Source of the DNA: Escherichia coli
GTDB lineage: Bacteria; Pseudomonadota; Gammaproteobacteria; Enterobacterales; Enterobacteriaceae
Direction: 5' to 3' (one strand)
Length of the DNA stretch: 64,000 nucleotides
Assembly (NCBI RefSeq): GCF_041886205.1
Contig: NZ_CP169029.1
A program made the translations under genes and the position numbers. Under the pieces are notes generated by a model, which saw nothing but the letters and a program-made list of their open reading frames with translations, was not told the DNA's origin and made no database searches. Shown piece by piece: positions 6,220 through 19,366 of the stretch; within the stretch, counting starts at the first letter, position 1; every line of letters starts with the position of its first letter.

Positions 6220-6677
6220 CAACTCAGGTCCGCAAAAATGTCATGGATATGTTTATCGATGGTGCGCGCCGTGGCTTTACTATCGCCACGACCAACCTGC
6301 TGCCAAACGTGGTGATGGCGTTTGTCATCATTCAGGCGCTGAAAATTACCGGCCTGCTCGACTGGGTGGGGCATATCTGTGAACCCGTAATGGCGCTGTG
6401 GGGATTACCCGGTGAAGCGGCAACCGTCCTTTTAGCCGCATTAATGAGTATGGGCGGCGCAGTCGGTGTTGCCGCCAGTCTGGCGACCGCCGGCGCATTA
6501 ACCGGTCACGATGTCACCGTTTTACTGCCCGCGATGTATTTAATGGGCAACCCGGTGCAAAATGTCGGTCGCTGCCTGGGGACAGCCGAAGTGAATGCCA
6601 AATATTACCCGCATATCATTACGGTCTGCGTGATTAACGCATTGCTGTCGATCTGGGTTATGCAGCTTATTGTTTAA
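6216..6677 (+). CDS. yjiG: Inner membrane protein YjiG (SpmB-like)
   Basis: 153-aa membrane ORF translationally coupled to yjiH and followed by iadA. Confidence 0.75.
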   Translation: MTTQVRKNVMDMFIDGARRGFTIATTNLLPNVVMAFVIIQALKITGLLDWVGHICEPVMALWGLPGEAATVLLAALMSMGGAVGVAASLATAGALTGHDVTVLLPAMYLMGNPVQNVGRCLGTAEVNAKYYPHIITVCVINALLSIWVMQLIV

Positions 6678-6689
6678 CAAGGAGTTACC

Positions 6690-7862
6690 ATGATTGATTA
6701 TACCGCAGCCGGTTTTACCCTGCTGCAGGGAGCGCATTTGTATGCGCCGGAAGATCGGGGAATTTGCGATGTCCTCGTCGCTAACGGCAAAATTATCGCC
6801 GTTGCCAGCAATATCCCTTCTGACATTGTACCGGACTGCACGGTTGTCGATCTCAGCGGGCAGATCCTCTGTCCTGGTTTTATTGATCAACACGTCCATT
6901 TGATTGGTGGTGGCGGTGAAGCAGGTCCCACGACGCGCACGCCAGAAGTGGCGCTAAGTCGCCTGACGGAAGCGGGCGTCACGTCAGTGGTTGGTCTGCT
7001 GGGCACCGACTCTATCTCTCGCCACCCGGAATCCCTGCTCGCCAAGACCCGTGCGCTCAATGAAGAAGGCATCAGCGCCTGGATGCTGACCGGCGCTTAT
7101 CATGTCCCTTCCCGCACCATTACAGGTTCCGTGGAAAAAGACGTGGCGATTATCGATCGTGTGATTGGCGTGAAATGCGCCATCTCTGATCACCGTTCTG
7201 CCGCACCGGACGTTTATCACCTGGCTAATATGGCGGCGGAATCCCGCGTTGGCGGTTTGCTCGGCGGTAAACCTGGCGTCACCGTGTTCCACATGGGCGA
7301 CAGCAAAAAGGCGTTACAGCCTGTCTATGACCTGCTGGAAAACTGCGATGTGCCGATCAGCAAGTTGCTGCCGACCCACGTTAACCGCAACGTTCCGTTG
7401 TTTGAGCAGGCGCTGGAGTTCGCGCGCAAAGGCGGCACTATCGATATCACCAGCAGCATTGACGAACCGGTCGCCCCTGCCGAAGGTATTGCGCGCGCCG
7501 TTCAGGCGGGTATTCCGCTGGCACGCGTCACCCTCAGCTCCGACGGCAACGGTAGCCAGCCGTTCTTCGATGACGAAGGGAATTTAACCCATATCGGTGT
7601 TGCCGGTTTTGAAACGTTGCTGGAAACCGTGCAGGTGCTGGTCAAAGACTATGATTTCAGTATCAGCGATGCCCTGCGCCCGCTCACCAGTAGCGTAGCC
7701 GGTTTCCTTAACCTGACCGGGAAAGGCGAAATTCTGCCAGGCAATGATGCTGACTTGCTGGTCATGACGCCAGAACTGCGCATTGAGCAGGTATACGCTC
7801 GCGGCAAACTGATGGTCAAAGACGGCAAAGCCTGCGTGAAAGGAACGTTTGAAACGGCTTAA
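6690..7862 (+). CDS. iadA: Isoaspartyl dipeptidase (amidohydrolase superfamily)
   Basis: 390 aa; metal-binding HxH motif near N-terminus (FIDQHVHLIGGGGE); RBS aggag upstream; K-12 synteny. Confidence 0.85.
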   Translation: MIDYTAAGFTLLQGAHLYAPEDRGICDVLVANGKIIAVASNIPSDIVPDCTVVDLSGQILCPGFIDQHVHLIGGGGEAGPTTRTPEVALSRLTEAGVTSVVGLLGTDSISRHPESLLAKTRALNEEGISAWMLTGAYHVPSRTITGSVEKDVAIIDRVIGVKCAISDHRSAAPDVYHLANMAAESRVGGLLGGKPGVTVFHMGDSKKALQPVYDLLENCDVPISKLLPTHVNRNVPLFEQALEFARKGGTIDITSSIDEPVAPAEGIARAVQAGIPLARVTLSSDGNGSQPFFDDEGNLTHIGVAGFETLLETVQVLVKDYDFSISDALRPLTSSVAGFLNLTGKGEILPGNDADLLVMTPELRIEQVYARGKLMVKDGKACVKGTFETA

Positions 7863-7926
7863 ACGGTTGTCAGCCGCCCGAATGGACGTAGAATGCCCGC
7901 AAGGGCGGCTGACAGAGTAAAACGTA

Positions 7927-8763
7927 ATGGATGACTGTGGTGCGATTTTGCATAATATTGAAACCAAATGGCTTTATGATTTTCTGACCCTGGAAAAATG
8001 CCGCAATTTTTCCCAGGCGGCAGTCAGTCGCAACGTCTCGCAACCGGCATTCAGCCGCCGCATCCGTGCGCTGGAACAGGCGATTGGTGTTGAATTGTTT
8101 AACCGCCAGGTAACGCCGCTGCAACTCTCAGAACAAGGGAAAATCTTCCATTCGCAGATCCGCCATCTGTTGCAACAGTTAGAGAGCAATCTGGCAGAGC
8201 TGCGTGGCGGCAGCGATTACGCGCAACGAAAAATCAAGATAGCCGCTGCACACTCTCTTTCCCTCGGGCTGTTACCGTCCATTATCAGCCAGATGCCGCC
8301 GCTCTTTACCTGGGCAATTGAAGCTATTGATGTCGATGAAGCGGTCGATAAACTGCGTGAAGGGCAAAGTGACTGTATTTTTTCCTTTCACGACGAAGAT
8401 TTGCTGGAAGCGCCGTTTGACCACATTCGCTTATTTGAATCTCAATTGTTCCCTGTCTGCGCCAGTGACGAACACGGAGAAGCACTTTTTAACCTCGCGC
8501 AGCCACACTTTCCGTTACTGAATTACAGCCGCAACTCCTACATGGGGCGATTGATTAATCGCACCCTGACGCGCCACAGTGAGTTAAGTTTCAGCACCTT
8601 TTTTGTCTCTTCGATGAGCGAGCTTTTAAAGCAGGTTGCCCTCGACGGCTGTGGGATTGCCTGGCTGCCGGAGTACGCCATCCAACAAGAAATTCGCAGC
8701 GGGAAGCTCGTTGTACTGAATCGGGACGAACTGGTGATCCCGATTCTGGCCTATGCATACTGA
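7927..8763 (+). CDS. hypT: LysR-family regulator HypT (YjiE), apparently truncated by an in-frame TGA; 24 further sense codons continue to a second stop at 8836-8838
   Basis: N-terminal HTH typical of LysR regulators; ORF ends ...ILAYAY then TGA, followed in frame by [24 protein letters not shown] and a stop. Confidence 0.75.
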   Translation: MDDCGAILHNIETKWLYDFLTLEKCRNFSQAAVSRNVSQPAFSRRIRALEQAIGVELFNRQVTPLQLSEQGKIFHSQIRHLLQQLESNLAELRGGSDYAQRKIKIAAAHSLSLGLLPSIISQMPPLFTWAIEAIDVDEAVDKLREGQSDCIFSFHDEDLLEAPFDHIRLFESQLFPVCASDEHGEALFNLAQPHFPLLNYSRNSYMGRLINRTLTRHSELSFSTFFVSSMSELLKQVALDGCGIAWLPEYAIQQEIRSGKLVVLNRDELVIPILAYAY

Positions 8764-8830
8764 ATGAATACCCGCATGAATCCAGTTGCCGAACGCTTCT
8801 GGCGTGAACTGCGCGAGCTGGAGATTGTAC

Positions 8831-9223
8831 TTAGCTGACATTCTCCAGCGTCGCACTACGCCAACCGCCATTATCCCAGACCAGATCAAACGTTAGCGGT
8901 TCATCGTCGTGGTACAGCATTATCTCAAGGCTGATCGCCAGCGTGTGACTGTACGCTTCTTTCAGATTGACCTGCAACGCCGCAATCCGTGGCTCATGAA
9001 ATAACAGTGCAGAACGCAGCTGACGGCAATACCAGCTCTGGAGATGTTTGTCGCTCTGGTTATGCACTTGCCACTCGGGCATGCCTGAAACAAGTAATGA
9101 CGGTAATGCCGAAAGAGGAGAATTAAAAAGAGTGAGGAGATCGCTGCATACCGATTTACGCAGCAATGACGTTTTATTGCCTGAAATTTTAGGTAAAACA
9201 GCCTGAAGTGATTGGCGCATCAT
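8831..9223 (-). CDS. iraD: Anti-adapter protein IraD (YjiD)
   Basis: About 130-aa ORF convergent with hypT; sequence [11 protein letters not shown]... as recalled for IraD; K-12 synteny. Confidence 0.75.
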
Positions 9224-9894
9224 TTTGCGCACTCCTGACGTTTAGCAACATATGCGGCTTGCCCTGAACACCGGGCACCACTGTATTGATGCTCATTTTC
9301 CATAGCCATTCCCTTTTGTTCATTACATCCATGTCAGTCTGAGACAGGCCTGAATCCTGTCAGCAAAGTATAAAACCTTACTTGCCTATGAATATCTACT
9401 GACTTTTCAGGAAAAAAGTCATGATTTGATAAAAATCATCAAACTCAAAAAAAAACCGCTAGTATATTCTGAATATTCCGAATAGTTACGTAGATGAAAA
9501 TACTTGTCACCGCCGCTACTTAATTCCGGTTGGAAATTATTTATTTCCGCATAATCATCTATGTATTATTTGAAACAATTAGTTTGTAAATAATATAAAT
9601 TGATAACATATCAAATACATCAAAAATACCATTCACAGGCATTATTAATATAGACCTCAATATAGCAACATCAAATTCCAATTAGTAATAAGATATGCTT
9701 TTAAATTGCATGCAAATAATTTTAAATGAGCGTTTTTTGATACTTTAGAGTGTTTCCTACCATTTAATATCACTGTGTAGAGTTGATATCACTACAACAG
9801 AAACATGCATGTCATTTGTTTACTTCTCTTTTACTACAGAAAAATTTATCTATTTTTCTAAACATCAGTGAAATACTCATAAAAGGTAACTATT

Positions 9895-10725
9895 ATGTCT
9901 ATGCCATTAAGCAATGCCGCTAATAACCAATTCTATATAAATAATCACTTCCTTCATCATCCAAAAGTCGACAATGAGTTAACACGTAAATATGAACGTG
10001 CACGCCTGGATACGGAAAATATCTATCTTCTGCCTCTTACTCGTGGCAATAACCATAATTACGATGGAAAAAGCGTTGTCGAAATTAGAAAACTTGATAT
10101 TAGTAAAGAGTCCTGGCCATTTAATTATGTGACAGAAACATGCAGAGAATCCGATGGTATTACAACAACAGGTCGTATGCTCTATCGAAACTTGCGAATT
10201 ACCTCAGCTTTAGACGAAATATATGGTGGTATATGTAAAAAGGCGCATGCTGCCACAGAGTTAGCAGAAGGATTACGGCTAAATTTATTTATGAAGAGCC
10301 CTTTCGATCCTGTTGAGGACTATACAGTTCATGAAATAACATTAGGCCCTGGTTGCAATGTTCCTGGTTATGCCGGAACCACGATAGGATATATTTCAAC
10401 CCTTCCAGCTTCTCAGGCAAAAAGATGGACCAATGAGCAGCCAAGGATTGATATCTATATTGATCAGATAATGACGGTAACAGGGGTAGCAAATTCTTCC
10501 GGATTCGCCCTTGCCGTATTACTTAATGCTAATATTGAGTTGGGTAATGACCCAATAATTGGTATAGAAGCCTATCCCGGTACCGCGGAGATCCATGCAA
10601 AAATGGGATATAAAGTTATCCCGGGTGATGAAAATGCACCACTCAAACGTATGACTCTGCAACCGTCATCTCTTCCAGAACTGTTTGAATTAAAAAATGG
10701 TGAATGGAATTATATTGGTAAATAA
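9895..10725 (+). CDS. yjiC: Uncharacterized protein YjiC, low-GC gene
   Basis: 276-aa ORF with AT-rich codon usage, preceded by a 660-bp very AT-rich intergenic region; position matches K-12 yjiC. Confidence 0.7.
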   Translation: MSMPLSNAANNQFYINNHFLHHPKVDNELTRKYERARLDTENIYLLPLTRGNNHNYDGKSVVEIRKLDISKESWPFNYVTETCRESDGITTTGRMLYRNLRITSALDEIYGGICKKAHAATELAEGLRLNLFMKSPFDPVEDYTVHEITLGPGCNVPGYAGTTIGYISTLPASQAKRWTNEQPRIDIYIDQIMTVTGVANSSGFALAVLLNANIELGNDPIIGIEAYPGTAEIHAKMGYKVIPGDENAPLKRMTLQPSSLPELFELKNGEWNYIGK

Positions 10726-10865
10726 CTACCAGGAAGAATGAGTACTAACATTCAGGTTATACAGATAGCTAAACAATACCCTGCAATTTACAAAGTAATA
10801 CTCATTGCGACTTCTTAATTTAAGAAAGCGCAAGGAACGTTTACCCTTGCGCTTATTATAATAAG

Positions 10866-11639
10866 TCAGGCGTCGACTTTATCCAGCGGCCATGAATCAA
10901 ACAGATAGCCATCAAAATAAATATCGTCAACGTTCGAGAATTCCAGCAGACGTTGCTTAACGTTTTCCAGATGCTGCCACATTGCCAGCTTCGCCGCTCG
11001 GGCATCTTTTTTGATTAACGCGGCGAGGATCTGTTTGTGATCGCCCAACCACTCTTTGCGATACAGGCTGTCATCCAGATGGCTGTGCAACTGGATCCAC
11101 ATTGGATTGTTTTCCCGCCACTGCCAGGACTGACGGAACAGCTCCACCAGCATGCTGTTATGCGTTGCTTCGGCAATAGCGAGATGGAACTGCATGTCAC
11201 CGCTTTCGCTGCTGCCCGGCGCACTGGAAGCCAGTTCACGCTCTTCCAGTTGCAATGCCTGACGCATTTTGACGATATCTTCGCGGGTAGCCTGCAGGGC
11301 GGCAAACTCGGCGATGTTGCTCTCAAGAAGCTGTCGCGCCTGCAACAGCTCAAAAGGACCCGCATCATTGCAAACGTTGGCATCCGGACTGTCTGTGTTG
11401 TGGCTGCCTGAGCTATCAAGAACATAGATACCGGCACCCCGGCGCACTTCCACCAGCCCTTTGATCTCCAGCATGATCAGCGCTTCACGTACCACCGTCC
11501 GCGTGACATCAAGCATTTCTGCAATTTCACGCTCCGGCGGCAGCCGTTCGCCAGGATTGTACGGCGTCTTTATGATCAGATCGCGGATCATCGCCCCGAC
11601 TTCCTGGTAAGGTCTTTGCGCAGAGGTGGCAGATTTCAT
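10866..11639 (-). CDS. uxuR: GntR/FadR-family transcriptional repressor UxuR
   Basis: 257 aa; N-terminal GntR-type HTH (RLPPEREIAEMLDVTRTVVREAL); adjacent to uxuAB. Confidence 0.9.
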   Translation of the reverse strand: MKSATSAQRPYQEVGAMIRDLIIKTPYNPGERLPPEREIAEMLDVTRTVVREALIMLEIKGLVEVRRGAGIYVLDSSGSHNTDSPDANVCNDAGPFELLQARQLLESNIAEFAALQATREDIVKMRQALQLEERELASSAPGSSESGDMQFHLAIAEATHNSMLVELFRQSWQWRENNPMWIQLHSHLDDSLYRKEWLGDHKQILAALIKKDARAAKLAMWQHLENVKQRLLEFSNVDDIYFDGYLFDSWPLDKVDA

Positions 11640-11852: not shown

Positions 11853-13313
11853 TTACAGCGCAGCCACACACTCGCGCGCACCGCGTTCGCACAGCTGCTG
11901 ATATGCCGCCGTCACCGCGCCAACAAAGTCCGCATTTTGCGGCAGATCATCGGCAAAAATACCGCTCAGGCCCAGCAACGCTTTCACGCGGTCTGCGCCC
12001 TGATTCTGCGCGTTGATCTTCTGGAACTCCGCCAGCATCGGGTCAACTACGTCAATGGCATTACCCTGCTCATCCACGCCCTGGGTGTAGCGCATCCAGC
12101 CAGCCACGCCCAGCGCCAGGTGACGCCAGCTGCCGCCGTTTTGCAGGTGCAGACGCACCGGATCCAGCAGACGCTGCGGTAACTTCTGGCTGCCGTCCAT
12201 CGCAATCTGCCAGGTACGGTGACGCAGAGACGGGTTGCTGAAACGCTCGATCAGCAGCGTCGCATAGGCGTTCAGGTCCGTACCTTCCGGCATCGACAGC
12301 GTTGGCGCTTGTTCCTGCATCATCAGGGCAAAGGCCGCTTTGCGATAATCCGGGTTAGTCATGGTGTCGGCAATAGTTTCATAGCCGCCGAGGTAACCGA
12401 GGTATGCCAGGAAAGAGTGGCTGCCGTTCAGCATACGCAGCTTCATCATTTCGAACGGCACAACGTCTGCAACGAACTGTGCGCCCACTTTATCCCAGTC
12501 CGGGCGACCATTAACGAAGTTATCTTCAATCACCCACTGACGGAACGGTTCGCAGGCAATGGCGCACGGGTCGTAAACACCCAGCTGGTCAGCAATTTCC
12601 TGTAAGGTTTCTGGCGTCGCCGCCGGAACGATGCGGTCAACCATGGTGCACGGGAAGGTGACGTTCTCTTCAATCCATGCCGCCAGCTGCGGATCGCGTG
12701 CCTGAGCCAGCCCAAGAACGGCAACCTTCGCCACATGACCGTTTTCTCGCACGTTGTCGCAGGACATCACCGTAAACGCTTTCAACCTTTTTTCACGACG
12801 CAGGCGCAACGCTTCTACGATGTAACCAATCGCGGACTTCGGCGCAGTCGGGTTTTCCAGATCGTGCTTGATCAGCGGGTTATTGAGATCCAGTTGACCG
12901 CTTGCCGCATCAGCGCAGTAGCCTTTTTCCGTGACCGTTAGAGAGACAATCGCCGTTTGCGGACGCGCCATCGCGTTGAGAATACCTTCGCAGCCATCGA
13001 TTTCCGGATGCAGCGCTTCTTTCATTGAACCGATAATTTTCAGCTCGGTGCTTTCTGCGCCTTTTTCCGCCACGGTGTACAGCAGTTGCTGTTTTTTCAG
13101 GTTTTCGATCAGCACGCGGTCGTTGCCTGGCATCAGGTTAACTTCGCAGATACCCCAGTCGCTGTCGGTGCTTTCCAGCAGGTGATGGGTATACAGCGCC
13201 TGGTGCGCGCGGTGAAACGCCCCGCAACCGAGATGCACAATGCGTGATTCCAGACGAGAATGATCCCATGACGGGCGGGCAACCGGCAGATTGCTGTCAA
13301 CAATAGTAGTCAT
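11853..13313 (-). CDS. uxuB: D-mannonate oxidoreductase (fructuronate reductase)
   Basis: 486 aa, mannitol-dehydrogenase-family protein with N-terminal Rossmann motif (VHLGCGAFHRAH); uxuAB operon context. Confidence 0.9.
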   Translation of the reverse strand: MTTIVDSNLPVARPSWDHSRLESRIVHLGCGAFHRAHQALYTHHLLESTDSDWGICEVNLMPGNDRVLIENLKKQQLLYTVAEKGAESTELKIIGSMKEALHPEIDGCEGILNAMARPQTAIVSLTVTEKGYCADAASGQLDLNNPLIKHDLENPTAPKSAIGYIVEALRLRREKRLKAFTVMSCDNVRENGHVAKVAVLGLAQARDPQLAAWIEENVTFPCTMVDRIVPAATPETLQEIADQLGVYDPCAIACEPFRQWVIEDNFVNGRPDWDKVGAQFVADVVPFEMMKLRMLNGSHSFLAYLGYLGGYETIADTMTNPDYRKAAFALMMQEQAPTLSMPEGTDLNAYATLLIERFSNPSLRHRTWQIAMDGSQKLPQRLLDPVRLHLQNGGSWRHLALGVAGWMRYTQGVDEQGNAIDVVDPMLAEFQKINAQNQGADRVKALLGLSGIFADDLPQNADFVGAVTAAYQQLCERGARECVAAL

Positions 13314-13393: not shown

Positions 13394-14578
13394 TTAACGG
13401 CTAAAGAAAGCGCGCTGGATCGCCAGTTCGACACCGCGAACTTCGGCCAGGCCTTTCAGACGACCAATTGCGGAGTAACCTGGGTTGGTTTTCTTCTTCA
13501 GGTCGTCCAGCATCTGATGACCGTGGTCCGGACGCATCGGGATCAGGTCTTCTTTGCCTTCCGCTTTACGACGGTGTTCTTCTTCAACAATCGCTTTCAC
13601 CACTTCGTACATATCAACGTCACCGTTCAGGTGCGCCGCTTCGTGGAAGGTTTTGGGGTTATCTTCACGCATGGTGGAGCGCAGATGGGTGAAGTAAATG
13701 CGCGGACCAAACTGCTTGATCATATCAACCAGATCGTTGTCAGCACGCACGCCGTAGGAACCGGTGCACATGGTGAAACCGTTCGCCATGCTGTTTACGG
13801 TATCAACCATCCACTGCATATCTTCAATGGTGGAAACAATGCGCGGCAGGCCGAGGATCGGGCGCGGCGGATCGTCCGGGTGAACAGCCATACGCACGCC
13901 AACTTCTTCGGCAACCGGAATAATCGCTTTCAGGAAGACCGCAAAGTTTTCGCGCAGTTTGGCTTTGTCGATATCTTTGTACAGCTCCAGGTGTTTACGG
14001 AACTGGTCGAGGGTGTAGCCTTCTTCCGCGCCCGGAAGACCAGCAATGATGTTACGGGTCAGACGCGCTTTGTCTTCGTCGCTCATAGTGGCGAAGCGAA
14101 CAGCAGCCTGAGCAATTTCTTCTTCGGCGTAATCCGCTTCCGCGCCTGGACGTTTCAGGATATGCATTTCGAATGCAGCGAATTCGATCTGGTCGAAGCG
14201 CAGCGCTTTGGAGCCGTCTGGCAGCACGTATTCGAGGTCAGTACGGGTCCAGTCGAGCACCGGCATGAAGTTGTAGCACACGGTGCGAATGCCGCACTGC
14301 GCCAGGTTGCGCAGAGTCTGCTGATAGTTAGCGATCCACTGCTCATAGTTGCCAGTGTGGGTTTTGATATCTTCGTGAATTGGTACGCTTTCTACGACAG
14401 ACCACACCAGGCCTGCGTCTTCAACGATCGCCTTGCGTTTGAGGATCTCTTCTACGGACCATACTTCGCCGTTCGGGATATGGTGCAGCGCGGTAACCAC
14501 GCCAGTTGCGCCCGCCTGACGGACATCAGCTAAAGAAACCGGATCGTTTGGGCCGTACCAGCGCCAGGTCTGTTCCAT
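13394..14578 (-). CDS. uxuA: Mannonate dehydratase
   Basis: Translation from [23 protein letters not shown]... (394 aa) matches UxuA; start chosen at internal Met of the 406-aa ORF. Confidence 0.9.
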
Positions 14579-14740
14579 GATTTTTCCTCTTTCACATAGT
14601 GGGTTCCACAGCAAAGAGACGCGGAACCCTGGAGTTGTTTAGGTATCCGGATGAACAACCAGACCGCAGCCGTGGCGTTGCATCGGATGAGATGGCGTAT
14701 AAGTTCTACCTTTTGGTAAGACATGTCAACCCGAATTCTG

Positions 14741-14864
14741 AAATTGGTTAACCACATCACAAGAAATCAACTCTATTGCTGGTTGATGCAAATGACAACA
14801 AAGGAGAAGCGGCGGTTAGTAATCGGGGGATGTGACATTCATCGCAATAATGGTTGACCAATTT
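14741..14864. promoter_or_regulatory. uxuAB control region with two UxuR/ExuR-operator-like palindromes
   Basis: aaattggttaaccacat (14741-14757) and tggttgaccaattt (14851-14864), near-palindromes around TGGTTAACCA, upstream of uxuA. Confidence 0.55.
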
Positions 14865-14972
14865 ACATAACGTGTCGCCCAAAATAACAATGGATTAACC
14901 TACTCCCCCATTGCATAAGTTGTGACCGACACAACAAAACTGATGTTGTTGCAAAGATTGCTATTTAGTTTT

Positions 14973-14987
14973 GGTATAAAAGGTATA
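14973..14987. promoter_or_regulatory. NanR-operator-like GGTATA direct repeats upstream of nanM
   Basis: ggtataaaaggtata about 50 bp upstream of the nanM start; NanR is known to bind GGTATA repeats. Confidence 0.45.
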
Positions 14988-15036
14988 CAGGCACATGGTG
15001 CGACATTTGAATTCCAGCGATCAGGAGTAATTCACA

Positions 15037-16143
15037 ATGAATAAAACAATAACGGCGCTTGCTATCATGATGGCTTCATTTGCCGCAAACGCGTCTGTAT
15101 TACCGGAAACTCCTGTGCCATTTAAAAGTGGTACCGGAGCAATTGATAACGACACTGTCTACATTGGTTTAGGTAGCACAGGTACGGCATGGTACAAGCT
15201 GGATACACAGGCCAAAGATAAAAAATGGACAGCGTTAGCTGCATTCCCTGGCGGACCAAGAGATCAAGCAACCTCGGCATTTATTGATGGCAATCTGTAT
15301 GTGTTTGGCGGCATTGGCAAAAACAGCGAGGGCTTGACTCAGGTATTTAATGACGTACACAAATACAACCCCAAAACCAATAGTTGGGTTAAATTGATGT
15401 CGCACGCACCGATGGGCATGGCGGGTCATGTAACTTTTGTACACAACGGCAAGGCTTATGTTACTGGCGGTGTTAACCAGAATATCTTCAATGGCTATTT
15501 TGAAGATCTCAACGAGGCTGGAAAAGATTCAACCGCTGTAGATAAAATCAACGCTCACTATTTTGACAAAAAAGCAGAAGATTATTTCTTCAATAAGTTT
15601 CTGTTGTCTTTTGATCCCTCAACACAGCAATGGAGTTACGCTGGCGAATCCCCCTGGTACGGAACGGCTGGTGCGGCGGTTGTGAATAAAGGTGATAAAG
15701 CCTGGCTTATTAATGGCGAAGCCAAACCAGGATTGCGAACGGATGCCGTATTTGAACTTGATTTCACCGGTAATAATTTAAAATGGAATAAGCTTGCTCC
15801 CGTCTCATCACCAGATGGCGTCGCTGGCGGTTTTGCGGGGATAAGCAATGATTCTCTTATATTTGCCGGAGGGGCCGGATTCAAAGGTTCACGAGAAAAT
15901 TACCAGAACGGTAAGAACTATGCGCATGAAGGCCTGAAAAAATCATATAGCGCTGATGTTCATCTTTGGCATAACGGGAAATGGGATAAATCGGGCGAAT
16001 TGTCGCAAGGTCGGGCCTACGGAGTATCATTGCCCTGGAATAATAGTTTATTAATTATTGGCGGTGAAACTGCAGGCGGCAAAGCGGTGACGGATTCAGT
16101 TTTGATCTCTGTGAAGGATAATAAAGTCACAGTACAAAACTAA
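15037..16143 (+). CDS. nanM: N-acetylneuraminate epimerase (Kelch-repeat sialic acid mutarotase), signal peptide present
   Basis: 368 aa with N-terminal signal peptide (MNKTITALAIMMASFAANA) and repeated Kelch-like GG motifs; RBS aggag. Confidence 0.85.
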   Translation: MNKTITALAIMMASFAANASVLPETPVPFKSGTGAIDNDTVYIGLGSTGTAWYKLDTQAKDKKWTALAAFPGGPRDQATSAFIDGNLYVFGGIGKNSEGLTQVFNDVHKYNPKTNSWVKLMSHAPMGMAGHVTFVHNGKAYVTGGVNQNIFNGYFEDLNEAGKDSTAVDKINAHYFDKKAEDYFFNKFLLSFDPSTQQWSYAGESPWYGTAGAAVVNKGDKAWLINGEAKPGLRTDAVFELDFTGNNLKWNKLAPVSSPDGVAGGFAGISNDSLIFAGGAGFKGSRENYQNGKNYAHEGLKKSYSADVHLWHNGKWDKSGELSQGRAYGVSLPWNNSLLIIGGETAGGKAVTDSVLISVKDNKVTVQN

Positions 16144-16207
16144 CGCTTCAGGGCCCCAGTAAAGGGGCCCTGCTATCAATTTATCATATCAATTACGCGA
16201 AAATTAT

Positions 16208-17188
16208 ATGGACGCAATAATATCGCCCGATTATTACTATGTTCTTACCGTTGCTGGTCAGTCTAATGCCATGGCGTATGGCGAAGGACTGCCATTACCG
16301 GACAGGGAAGATGCGCCTCATCCCAGAATTAAACAATTAGCAAGATTTGCGCATACGCATCCCGGAGGCCCGTCATGTCACTTTAACGACATTATTCCAC
16401 TGACTCACTGCCCACACGATGTTCAGGATATGCAGGGTTATCACCATCCTCTGGCAACGAATCATCAAACACAGTACGGCACCGTTGGCCAGGCACTGCA
16501 TATTGCACGGAAATTACTGCCCTTCATTCCTGATAATGCAGGGGTTCTCATCGTTCCATGTTGTCGTGGCGGCTCGGCTTTTATCGCAGGCAGCGAAGGG
16601 ACATATTCAGAACGGCACGGAGCCAGCCATGATGCTTGTCGTTGGGGAACGGATACTCCGCTATACCAGGATTTAGTCAGCAGAACGCGAGCCGCACTGG
16701 CAAAAAATCCGCAGAACAAATTCCTCGGCGTATGCTGGATGCAAGGCGAATTTGACTTAATGACCTGTGACTACTCGTCACACCCTCAACACTTTAATCA
16801 TATGGTTGAAGCCTTTCGTAGGGATCTAAAACAATACCATTCTCAGCTTAATAAAATTACTGACGCGCCGTGGTTTTGCGGCGATACCACCTGGTACTGG
16901 AAAGAAAATTTCCCTCATGCGTATGAAGCTATTTATGGCAATTATCAAAATAATGTTTTAGCTAATATTATTTTCGTCGACTTCCAGCAACAAGGTGAAA
17001 GAGGACTGACGAACGCGCCTGATGAAGACCCGGACGATTTAATCATGGGATATTACGGTTCAGCGTACCGGTCACCGGAGAACTGGACGACGGCACTGCG
17101 AAGCAGTCATTTCAGCGCGGCAGCCCGTCGGGGGATTATTTCTGACAGGTTTGTAGAAGCAATTTTGCAGTTTTGGCGCGAAAGGTGA
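16208..17188 (+). CDS. nanS: 9-O-acetyl-N-acetylneuraminate esterase (SGNH/DUF303 family)
   Basis: 326 aa beginning ...YVLTVAGQSNAMAYGEG (GQSN catalytic-serine motif); directly downstream of nanM. Confidence 0.8.
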   Translation: MDAIISPDYYYVLTVAGQSNAMAYGEGLPLPDREDAPHPRIKQLARFAHTHPGGPSCHFNDIIPLTHCPHDVQDMQGYHHPLATNHQTQYGTVGQALHIARKLLPFIPDNAGVLIVPCCRGGSAFIAGSEGTYSERHGASHDACRWGTDTPLYQDLVSRTRAALAKNPQNKFLGVCWMQGEFDLMTCDYSSHPQHFNHMVEAFRRDLKQYHSQLNKITDAPWFCGDTTWYWKENFPHAYEAIYGNYQNNVLANIIFVDFQQQGERGLTNAPDEDPDDLIMGYYGSAYRSPENWTTALRSSHFSAAARRGIISDRFVEAILQFWRER

Positions 17189-17195
17189 GCGTTCA

Positions 17196-17846
17196 TTAAT
17201 TTGATTTATTCGCATCCATTAGCGCTTTTAACTGCTCCGGCGTAAACGGTGGTTTGCGTCGGTGCAGCATCGCATGGCAATTAGGGCACACAGGAAGCAA
17301 ATCATTAACTGGATCCAGCTGGTAATCCTCTTTAATGGCTGAAAGCGGCACCAGGTGATGCACATGGATAAAGCCTTCAGCGATATCACCATAGATCTTC
17401 ACCAGATCAACGCCGCATACGTTGCATTGGCATCCATGATGTTCGACCGCTTTATCTCGGGCCTTTTTATCGCGTTCATAGCGGTTTACTGTCACCTTTA
17501 TCGCCGCACCTTCAACGTAGGTCCCCTGCGACGGCAGCTCATCCGGGAACAGAACGTCGGCTATGGGAGCCGCAGCGGCTTTATCCTGATGAATATGAAA
17601 TCCCTGCTCTATGAGTAGCTTGACACATTTAGATTTTATTCCGCCGGTGAAATCCGCAGGGGTAAATTGCGTCCCCGTCATCAATGTCGCTGCGATGCCA
17701 GCAATCGCCTTCGAGGGGTAACGTCGGCCATGATATTCAATTTCATACAACCGTGCAGGCTGGAACTGATGAGTTTCTCCCGCATCCCATAAATGAATAG
17801 CTTCGATGATATACCGCCGCGGAAGATGATCGGGGAGTTTATTCAT
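17196..17846 (-). CDS. HNH endonuclease, McrA-like (candidate modification-dependent restriction/defence nuclease)
   Basis: 216 aa; C-terminal HNH/zinc-finger signature CQCNVCG...HVHHLVPLS...NDLLPVCPNCH; N-terminal roughly 120-aa domain of unknown type; convergent with nanS, next to IS1. Confidence 0.7.
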   Translation of the reverse strand: MNKLPDHLPRRYIIEAIHLWDAGETHQFQPARLYEIEYHGRRYPSKAIAGIAATLMTGTQFTPADFTGGIKSKCVKLLIEQGFHIHQDKAAAAPIADVLFPDELPSQGTYVEGAAIKVTVNRYERDKKARDKAVEHHGCQCNVCGVDLVKIYGDIAEGFIHVHHLVPLSAIKEDYQLDPVNDLLPVCPNCHAMLHRRKPPFTPEQLKALMDANKSN

Positions 17847-17992
17847 AGAGAATGTCCTTATACGTTCTCAGAACAAGCAGCAAAAAAACAAATGAGATCA
17901 AAGTAATATATCTTCACTTGCAGGCTTGAACAGCAGAAAATTTGCGAGCATGATCGCAATTATTTCACTGCCAGGGAGGTAATGACTCCAAC

Positions 17993-18496
17993 TTATTGAT
18001 AGTGTTTTATGTTCAGATAATGCCCGATGACTTTGTCATGCAGCTCCACCGATTTTGAGAACGACAGCGACTTCCGTCCCAGCCGTGCCAGGTGCTGTCT
18101 CAGATTCAGGTTATGCCGCTCAATTCGCTGCGTATATCGCTTGCTGATTACGTGCAGCTTTCCCTTCAGGCGGGATTCATACAGCGGCCAGCCATCCGTC
18201 ATCCATATCACCACGTCAAAGGGTGACAGCAGGCTCATAAGACGCCCCAGCGTCGCCATAGTGCGTTCACCGAATACGTGCGCAACAACCGTCTTCCGGA
18301 GCCTGTCATACGCGTAAAACAGCCAGCGCTGGCGCGATTTAGCCCCGACATAGCCCCACTGTTCGTCCATTTCCGCGCAGACGATGACGTCACTGCCCGG
18401 CTGTATGCGCGAGGTTACCGACTGCGGCCTGAGTTTTTTAAATGGCGGAAAATCGTGTTGAGGCCAACGCCCATAATGCGGGCGGTTGCCCGGCAT
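17993..18496 (-). CDS. insB: IS1 transposase InsB reading frame (expressed as InsAB' by -1 frameshift)
   Basis: 167-aa [19 protein letters not shown]...DGWPLYE... overlapping the insA 3-prime end in the -1 frame, as in IS1. Confidence 0.9.
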
Positions 18497-18690
18497 CCAA
18501 CGCCATTCATGGCCATATCAATGATTTTCTGGTGCGTACCGGGTTGAGAAGCGGTGTAAGTGAACTGCAGTTGCCATGTTTTACGGCAGTGAGAGCAGAG
18601 ATAGCGCTGATGTCCGGCGGTGCTTTTGCCGTTACGCACCACCCCGTCAGTAGCTGAACAGGAGGGACAGCTGATAGAAACAGAAGCCAC
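18415..18690 (-). CDS. insA: IS1 protein InsA
   Basis: 91-aa [46 protein letters not shown]..., the IS1 InsA zinc-finger protein. Confidence 0.95.
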
Positions 18691-18745
18691 TGGAGCACCT
18701 CAAAAACACCATCATACACTAAATCAGTAAGTTGGCAGCATCACC

Positions 18746-19057
18746 CAGCAAACGAACCTGGATGATTTGCCGGATAAAGCCAGCATCATTGACGCGTTTT
18801 TTACCTTTGCTCAACGCGAACAGCAACGTGAAGCAGAAGCCTTGATCAAAGAAGAAAATCTCAATGAAGAGGCGGCGAAACGCTATATTCGCACGTCTTT
18901 AAAACGCGAATACGCCACCGAAAATGGCACGGAATTAAACGAGACATTGCCAAAACTCAGTCCGTTAAATCCGCAATATAAGACGAAAAAACAGACGGTT
19001 TTCCAGAAGATCGTCGCGTTTATTGAGAAGTTTAAAGGTGTAGGCGGGCAGATATAA
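18746..19057 (+). pseudogene. 3-prime remnant of a larger gene truncated at its 5-prime end by IS1; encoded tail is charged and helical
   Basis: Reading frame is open from the IS1 boundary with no start context (first listed codon is TTG); peptide ...[37 protein letters not shown]...[15 protein letters not shown]. Confidence 0.6.
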
Positions 19058-19240
19058 TGTATTAATCCGAACCTGATCTGGCAGATAGCTGTCAGATCAG
19101 GACTGAGCTAATACAAATTAATGTCGAACCGAAAATACCAACGCCTGTACCAACATTTTTCGTTTGCGATGGGTTGGAATTGGTTAGCCCTGAGAGAGTT
19201 AAAATAGCGAGAAAGATAGGTAACTAACGGATTTCAGACA

Positions 19241-19268
19241 CAAAAAAAGCCGCTCTTGAGCGGCTCGA
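19241..19268 (-). terminator. Rho-independent terminator of leuX
   Basis: On the minus strand gagccgctcaagagcggc hairpin followed by a T-run immediately 3-prime of the tRNA. Confidence 0.7.
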
Positions 19269-19281
19269 TTTGCATACGGTG

Positions 19282-19366
19282 TGGTGCCGAAGGCCGGACT
19301 CGAACCGGCACGTATTTCTACGGTTGATTTTGAATCAACTGCGTCTACCGATTTCGCCACTTCGGC
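19282..19366 (-). tRNA. leuX: tRNA-Leu (CAA), leuX
   Basis: Reverse complement reads GCCGAAGTGGCGAAATCGGTAGACGCAGTTGATTCAAAATCAACCGTAGAAATACGTGCCGGTTCGAGTCCGGCCTTCGGCACCA with CAA anticodon loop and encoded CCA end. Confidence 0.95.

Follow-up and report, generated by a model that had tools for sequence, protein, structure and literature searches.

The closest described counterpart of the locus analyzed here is the chromosomal interval that lies between uxuA and nanM in Escherichia coli K-12. In strain BW25113 this interval spans ~12.5 kb and carries gntP, the fim genes in the order fimH-G-F-D-C-I-A-E-B, a 1,455-bp spacer and nanC; a preliminary description of our DNA had already named gntP, the fim cluster and nanC for it. 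gntP is a member of the UxuR regulon, and fimB is controlled by NanR and NagC from sites within the fimB-nanC spacer of K-12. The nanCMS genes form a NanR-regulated operon, and growth on Neu5Ac requires NanC only when OmpF and OmpC are missing (PMC3658417). High-affinity binding of NanR requires at least two closely spaced GGTATA repeats (PMC8012715).

We analyzed a 64-kb stretch of E. coli DNA (the window) in which uxuA and nanM are direct neighbors. On the minus strand uxuR (10866-11639) is followed by uxuB (11853-13313) and by uxuA (13394-14578), the latter encoding a 394-aa mannonate dehydratase (NCBIfam TIGR00695, 790 bits); nucleotide identity to K-12 is 98.1% for uxuA and 98% for uxuAB. 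The plus strand carries nanM (15037-16143), which encodes an N-acetylneuraminate epimerase of 368 aa (NF010730, 601 bits with a cutoff of 416) and shows 97.5-99% nucleotide identity to K-12, and nanS (16208-17188), encoding a sialate O-acetylesterase of 326 aa (Pfam SASA). Both genes are intact as judged by their profile matches and by the full-length 326-aa ORF of nanS. The start of uxuA (14578) and that of nanM (15037) are separated by a spacer of 458 bp (14579-15036), in line with the ~460 bp first estimated. A tblastn search with 11 K-12 proteins (the gntP, fim and nanC products) gave no match across the 64-kb window, confirming that these genes are missing at the locus; for nanC as the first gene of the operon, the window showed neither an ORF nor a tblastn match to NanC.

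The same junction was present in two of 5,426 complete E. coli genomes, namely ET201 (frog, China) and 6EVA (human, Singapore), which differ by ~2% in the left flank and whose nanS orthologues are annotated in RefSeq as sialate O-acetylesterase. The index of the assembly collection lists, in 277 blocks, a NanM protein identical to that of the window, and uxuA was found 458 bp upstream in every one of the 23 contigs with identical NanM that were read. With two complete genomes and all 23 contigs showing it, the uxuA-nanM adjacency is not an assembly artefact. To look for the missing genes elsewhere, we used a chimeric query made of a 1.4-kb junction bait and six 500-bp K-12 probes on alternating strands (nanC, fimB, fimC, fimD, fimH and gntP). 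On the chromosomes of ET201 and 6EVA, at megablast sensitivity, it matched one place each, that of the bait, so that nanC, fim and gntP are absent from the whole chromosome of both at that sensitivity; as positive control, this bait combined with probes for nanR and nanA matched two places in each. Genome-wide absence thus rests on these two proxy carriers, the window's own genome having been read over 64 kb. Both complete junction-carrying genomes possess nanR-nanA. We found in the literature no specific prior description of this haplotype, nor of fim absence in cryptic clades.

Moreover, the uxuA-nanM adjacency together with the same promoter module (see below) was found in E. whittamii and in SCPM-O-B-8794, a genome labelled E. 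coli that is the representative of another Escherichia species. The flanking genes are 88-96% identical in these two, versus 98-100% for the flanks of the window. In another genome, Escherichia sp. E1V33, nanM is preceded by a promoter without nanC, and Zorya-like genes lie upstream; in its retrieved locus (6317-9790) MotA/ExbB-like and OmpA-like genes and a 367-aa ORF lie directly upstream of the nan promoter, and an HNH_2 gene follows nanM, with no nanS there. Strain E69 presents a K-12-like arrangement with fim and nanC. In E. albertii, the earliest-branching species of the genus, the genes fimF...fimB are followed by a spacer of 986 bp and by a K-12-like promoter (87% identity, operator GGTATGACAGGTATA) that leads straight into nanM, with no nanC and no nanS at the locus. 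A nanS-sized ORF after nanM is missing in E. whittamii, E1V33 and E. albertii and present in SCPM-O-B-8794 and E. coli; its lack in three species is consistent with the published remark that nanS hardly occurs outside E. coli.

The spacer itself is composed of two parts, and its alignment with the K-12 uxuA-gntP spacer and the K-12 nanC promoter maps the junction between them at 14900/14901. The left part (14579-14900) is collinear with the K-12 uxuA-gntP spacer, homology stopping 17 bp short of the K-12 gntP ATG, and we regard it as the retained uxuA-gntP divergent control region. It contains two palindromes that we take to be putative UxuR/ExuR operators on the basis of the published consensus. 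The first, AAATTGGTTAACCACATC (14741-14758), is identical in K-12 and lies beside the predicted uxuA promoter, a promoter-like site on the minus strand (TTGTCA-17-TAGAGT, 14770-14798) that points towards uxuA and scored 9/12 matches in a consensus scan. The second, TAATGGTTGACCAATTTA (14847-14864), is conserved in K-12 upstream of gntP; the palindrome cores (14741-14754 and 14851-14864) mirror one another with 93% complementarity. An operator palindrome conserved beside the uxuA promoter is what a UxuR/ExuR-controlled uxuAB promoter would display, and uxuR is in the window. On the plus strand, the consensus scan predicted another promoter-like site (TTTACA-18-AACAAT, 14862-14891), conserved in K-12, that overlaps palindrome 2 and points at gntP in K-12 and at nanM here, no terminator being predicted between it and nanM. 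Since palindrome 2 overlaps a promoter-like site facing the missing gntP, it is most likely an orphaned gntP operator rather than a second uxuA operator. Both palindromes had been proposed to serve uxuA; their presence holds, but only the first adjoins the predicted uxuA promoter. Compared to K-12, therefore, the control region is the same in being collinear and in keeping both palindromes and both promoter-like sites, and it differs in that gntP is gone, the gntP-side promoter and operator now facing the nan promoter and nanM.

The right part of the spacer (14901-15036, plus strand), directly before nanM, is a nan promoter module. No blastn match to it was obtained in 5,424 of the 5,426 complete E. 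coli genomes nor in plasmids, and the core segment 14860-15060 was equally blank by megablast and blastn in 5,424 genomes and in plasmids; its homology to the K-12 nanC promoter/operator was for this reason established by local alignment with shuffled sequences (score of 65, shuffles 26.3 +/- 3.7), the identity being 71%. The module harbors GGTATAAAAGGTATA (14973-14987, plus strand), a GGTATA-AAA-GGTATA element which aligns with the K-12 nanC operator GGTATAACAGGTATA and is the sole match to GGTATA-N1-6-GGTATA in the 64-kb window (0.01 expected from shuffles). It comprises two GGTATA repeats 3 nt apart, which agrees with the spacing of 2-3 nt required of a NanR-regulated operon of the nanCMS type (PMC8012715). 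A degenerate third repeat, GGCACA, follows after CA (14990-14995, plus strand), as read from the sequence; the corresponding repeat is GGTGCA at K-12 nanC and GGTATA at K-12 nanA. Written in full, the window operator is GGTATA-AAA-GGTATA-CA-GGCACA and that of K-12 GGTATA-ACA-GGTATA-AA-GGTGCA, with a common 6-3-6-2-6 layout of repeats. The GGTATA repeats had been noticed at the outset as a possible NanR operator, and they are indeed the homologue of the K-12 nanC NanR operator, binding of NanR itself being predicted from this likeness.

Upstream of the operator, a CRP-like site TGTGACCGACACAACA of the form TGTGA-N6-CAACA (14921-14936, plus strand) starts with its TGTGA 52 nt before it, K-12 having TGTGACACGAATTGCA at the aligned position; we infer that CRP may bind there. 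Downstream, the nanM ribosome-binding site AGGAG (15023-15027, plus strand) is conserved in all six Escherichia sequences aligned and lies ~35 nt from the operator, where K-12 has a leader of about 415-425 nt and then nanC. Overall, the window shares with K-12 nanCMS a homologous promoter, the CRP-like site, the GGTATA-N3-GGTATA element with its degenerate third repeat, the nanM-nanS order, the orthologous genes themselves and the nanM ribosome-binding site, and carrier genomes share nanR-nanA. It differs by lacking nanC and its roughly 415-nt leader, the operon being reduced to nanMS, and by having uxuA instead of fimB as the upstream neighbor, so that the long fimB-nanC spacer is gone. From these features we infer that nanMS would be under NanR control; the module is ~30% diverged from K-12 and thus regulatory details may differ. 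A search of Rfam over 14300-15300 returned no RNA family.

Could the GGTATA repeats be a non-functional leftover, with nanMS read from the orphaned UxuR-controlled gntP promoter or silent? The promoter-like site at 14862-14891 points at nanM and no terminator is predicted in between, and a simple sigma-70 scan called no promoter at the operator, a missed call that could reflect activator dependence. Against this stands the conservation of the module, which is 95.6% identical to that of E. whittamii (98% over the promoter stretch; 88.2% to SCPM-O-B-8794), equal to or above the adjacent coding sequence (88-92%), which suggests constraint; moreover, nanM and nanS are intact and nanR is present in carriers. 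We therefore judge a leftover operator quite unlikely. Read-through from the orphaned gntP-side promoter as an addition to the nan promoter is less likely than transcription from the nan promoter by itself. A bolder combination, in which the junction is a trans-species or introgressed allele predating the split of E. coli and E. whittamii and the gntP promoter reads through into nanMS, appears unlikely to us; if it were true, periplasmic sialic-acid processing would respond to hexuronates as well as to sialic acid, and NanR would act partly as a roadblock.

The direction of change at this locus can be approached through E. whittamii. Its junction differs from that of the window in that it retains 114 bp, including a 5' fragment of gntP, and in having no nanS-sized ORF downstream. 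In E. whittamii two copies of TTAACC bracket the 114-bp segment, and the window shows a single TTAACC (14895-14900) at the left junction. The segment begins, collinear with the spacer, with homology to the gntP ribosome-binding site and 5' end as present in E. coli strain MB06022 and in K-12 (score of 52, shuffles 21.5 +/- 2.8). This gntP fragment is short, with ~50 aligned bases, and an internal stretch of gntP matches equally well (score of 50), so that the part of gntP represented is ambiguous; either reading implies a former gntP. An initial assignment of the extra segment to the inside of gntP was replaced by the collinear 5' fragment after comparison with MB06022. That genome (2220-3410 of the retrieved locus) shows a third arrangement beside uxuA: the gntP start is decayed (ATG->ATT) and leaves no long ORF, and beyond it lie AT-rich unannotated DNA and a gene with a UvrD-helicase domain. 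Rearrangements seem to concentrate at this site close to uxuA.

A decayed gntP 5' fragment exactly at the E. whittamii junction indicates that the arrangement arose by deletion, and it speaks against the compact form being the native ancestral state of Escherichia, with gntP, fim and nanC inserted later on the way to most E. coli. The latter view can draw on four non-coli Escherichia genomes without nanC before nanM, two of which are also without gntP and fim there, and on the AT-rich nature of the K-12 nanC leader. It is nevertheless at odds with E. albertii, where fimB (88% identical) adjoins the same nan promoter across a partly alignable spacer, which backs fim loss; moreover, in the window the promoter-like site and operator at 14847-14891 point at a gene that has disappeared. 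We hold a native compact state to be very unlikely, and for gntP and fim the sequence comparison favours loss over native absence. The preliminary description had offered loss in this lineage as one of two possibilities: loss is backed for gntP and fim, but it is not private to the lineage, and for nanC specifically it is weakly indicated (see below).

At the opposite extreme, the junction might stem from a deletion that occurred recently in a single E. coli clone and is private to it, such as an IS-mediated one. Complete E. coli genomes often carry partial fim deletions of independent origin, in many cases with an IS1 or IS5 where the ends are joined, and the window has an IS1 fragment 3 kb downstream. 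Several such partial deletions were seen in TUM10008, WB61, LH13-b, mussel ST536 isolates and pig/pork isolates, several with IS1/IS5, and none of the other fim-deleted E. coli genomes retrieved by the probe search had the window junction. The locus shares with ABU 83972 (fimB-fimD deletion) and with the IS1/IS5 fim deletions known from several E. coli and Shigella the loss of fim genes at the same chromosomal position. Those deletions, however, are partial, lineage-private and often IS-associated, whereas that of the window is complete, shared across species and joined without an IS; unlike them, it also takes gntP and lacks nanC. No IS or IS remnant is present in 14579-15036, the joint being the single TTAACC. 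A recent private event is further contradicted by the identity of the junction in two E. coli genomes ~2% apart and in two other Escherichia species, and the core is 20-30% diverged from the K-12 type, which is impossible for a recent deletion of a K-12-like allele. We consider this explanation extremely unlikely. Instead, it is probable that the spacer is the scar of an old deletion, now a stable haplotype that at least two further Escherichia species carry as well, and of which the window form would be a further-trimmed version.

In the case of nanC the situation is different, since its loss specifically is only weakly indicated. A possible 3' fragment of nanC (14997-15017, plus strand; GGT GCG ACA TTT GAA TTC CAG, G-A-T-F-E-F-Q) can be aligned in frame to the final codons of K-12 nanC (GVSFKL-stop), and GATFEF fits the family C-terminus GV[ST]F.[LF]; shuffles scored as high in 13 of 1,000 cases and, in a second test, in 6 of 500 (p about 0.01). 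An alternative is that the haplotype never carried nanC, and that K-12-type E. coli gained nanC with its 415-nt leader from a mobile nanC-nanM cluster. In agreement with such a gain, every non-coli Escherichia examined (E. albertii, E. whittamii, E1V33 and SCPM-O-B-8794) lacks nanC, and the leaders of E1V33 and E. albertii bear no significant similarity to the nanC 3' end. There is, besides, a mobile cluster in which nanC and nanM are likewise 19 nt apart and the 3' end of nanC is much alike, and in E69 the nanC 3' end is near-identical to K-12 with a nanM only about 90% identical. The in-frame GATFEF alignment of the window leader weighs against a haplotype that never had nanC, as does the very precise event needed for an insertion exactly between the promoter and the first gene. 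We see a haplotype that never had nanC, with gain of the gene in K-12-type E. coli, as a substantial possibility, its probability lying somewhat below even.

The combination found in E69, a K-12-like nanC 3' end beside a diverged nanM, suggests that nanC moves horizontally. In its retrieved locus (9256-11107) the nanC 3' end and the nanC-nanM spacer are almost those of K-12 and nanM is 85-93% identical, which suggests a recombination boundary at the nanM start. The apparently mobile nan cluster was found on E. coli contig AAAAWY020000030.1 (4150-9107 of the retrieved locus), where a DHDPS/NanA-like gene, an MFS transporter, a KdgM-family porin and a NanM (85% identical) are flanked by ParE toxin, ProQ, Fic and IS66 genes, the porin-nanM spacing of 19 nt being as in K-12.

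Comparison of the window with different references revealed a mosaic. The spacer is 100% identical to K-12 over 14579-14765 and 80.7% over 14766-14900; the corresponding values for E. whittamii are 93.6% and 89.6%, with nanM at about 78-92%. The SNP density against ET201 is 0.05% left of 15178 and 2.3% across nanM, nanS and the HNH gene, that is, 8 differences in 14.9 kb followed by 62 in 2.7 kb (15178-17846) starting inside nanM, which places a recombination breakpoint immediately to the right of the conserved junction. The core genes right of leuX (lptGF, pepA and valS) are 99.1-99.2% identical to ordinary E. coli, ET201 not being among their best matches, and at 99.2% they identify the strain as an ordinary E. 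coli. We thus rejected the idea that the left flank is wholly foreign to E. coli, given uxuAB at 98% to K-12 and right-hand core genes at 99.2%; an assignment to 'cryptic clade I' is unsupported on the same grounds. The pattern of identities would make 14766-15036 an old core of ~270 bp inside recombined K-12-like flanks.

Two further observations concern the neighborhood of the locus. The hypT gene (7927-8763) has a CGA-to-TGA nonsense change at 8761 (R279*) relative to an otherwise 99.9% identical ET201 allele, removing the last 25 residues of this hypochlorite-response regulator. On the other side, the leuX island (leuX, tRNA-Leu CAA, 19282-19366) is almost empty in the window (17196-19366): the stretch from nanS to leuX/ahr contains nothing but a gene for an HNH endonuclease and a fragment of an IS1 transposase (17993-18496). 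At this position ET201 and 6EVA hold ~10 kb (AbiEii, DUF4942, type I restriction-modification), and K-12 has beyond nanS many further genes (yjhR, topAI, sgc, yjhIHG).

Based on the old-deletion reading, the following history can be proposed. The ancestor would have had a K-12-like order, with uxuA, gntP, fimH...fimB, a long spacer, the nan promoter, perhaps nanC, and nanM. A deletion would then have taken out the entire fim operon, all of gntP but a short 5' stub, and the greater part of the fimB-nan spacer, ending ~70 bp upstream of the NanR operator, a stage that E. whittamii may preserve. In the form found in the window, the remaining 114 bp would subsequently have been lost between the two copies of TTAACC. 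The haplotype is found in several Escherichia species and, at very low frequency, in E. coli, where recombination presumably exchanged its flanks for ordinary E. coli sequence and left the ~270-bp core at 14766-15036. In the resulting cells uxuAB would keep its own promoter and UxuR/ExuR operator, and nanM-nanS would be transcribed from the retained nan promoter, with its CRP-like site and a -10 region inside the GGTATA repeats, repressed by NanR and induced by sialic acid as K-12 nanCMS is. Such cells would be without type 1 fimbriae, the FimB/FimE switch, the GntP fructuronate transporter and the NanC porin, and sialic acid would be expected to enter via general porins.

A natural E. coli haplotype without the type 1 fimbriae genes, gntP and nanC is now defined; it is a real, rare and old structural variant built of well-known parts, with no new molecular mechanism. 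The gene loss is old and common to other Escherichia species and is not a clonal accident, and the haplotype illustrates in compact form how a deletion allele can survive between flanks that have recombined. These results are relevant to Escherichia population genomics, to fimH typing and to the natural history of the sialoregulon: carriers would be fimH-untypable and should lack mannose-sensitive adhesion, and they offer a natural test of the weight of NanC, of the fimB-nanC regulatory spacer and of GntP in the gut or the environment.
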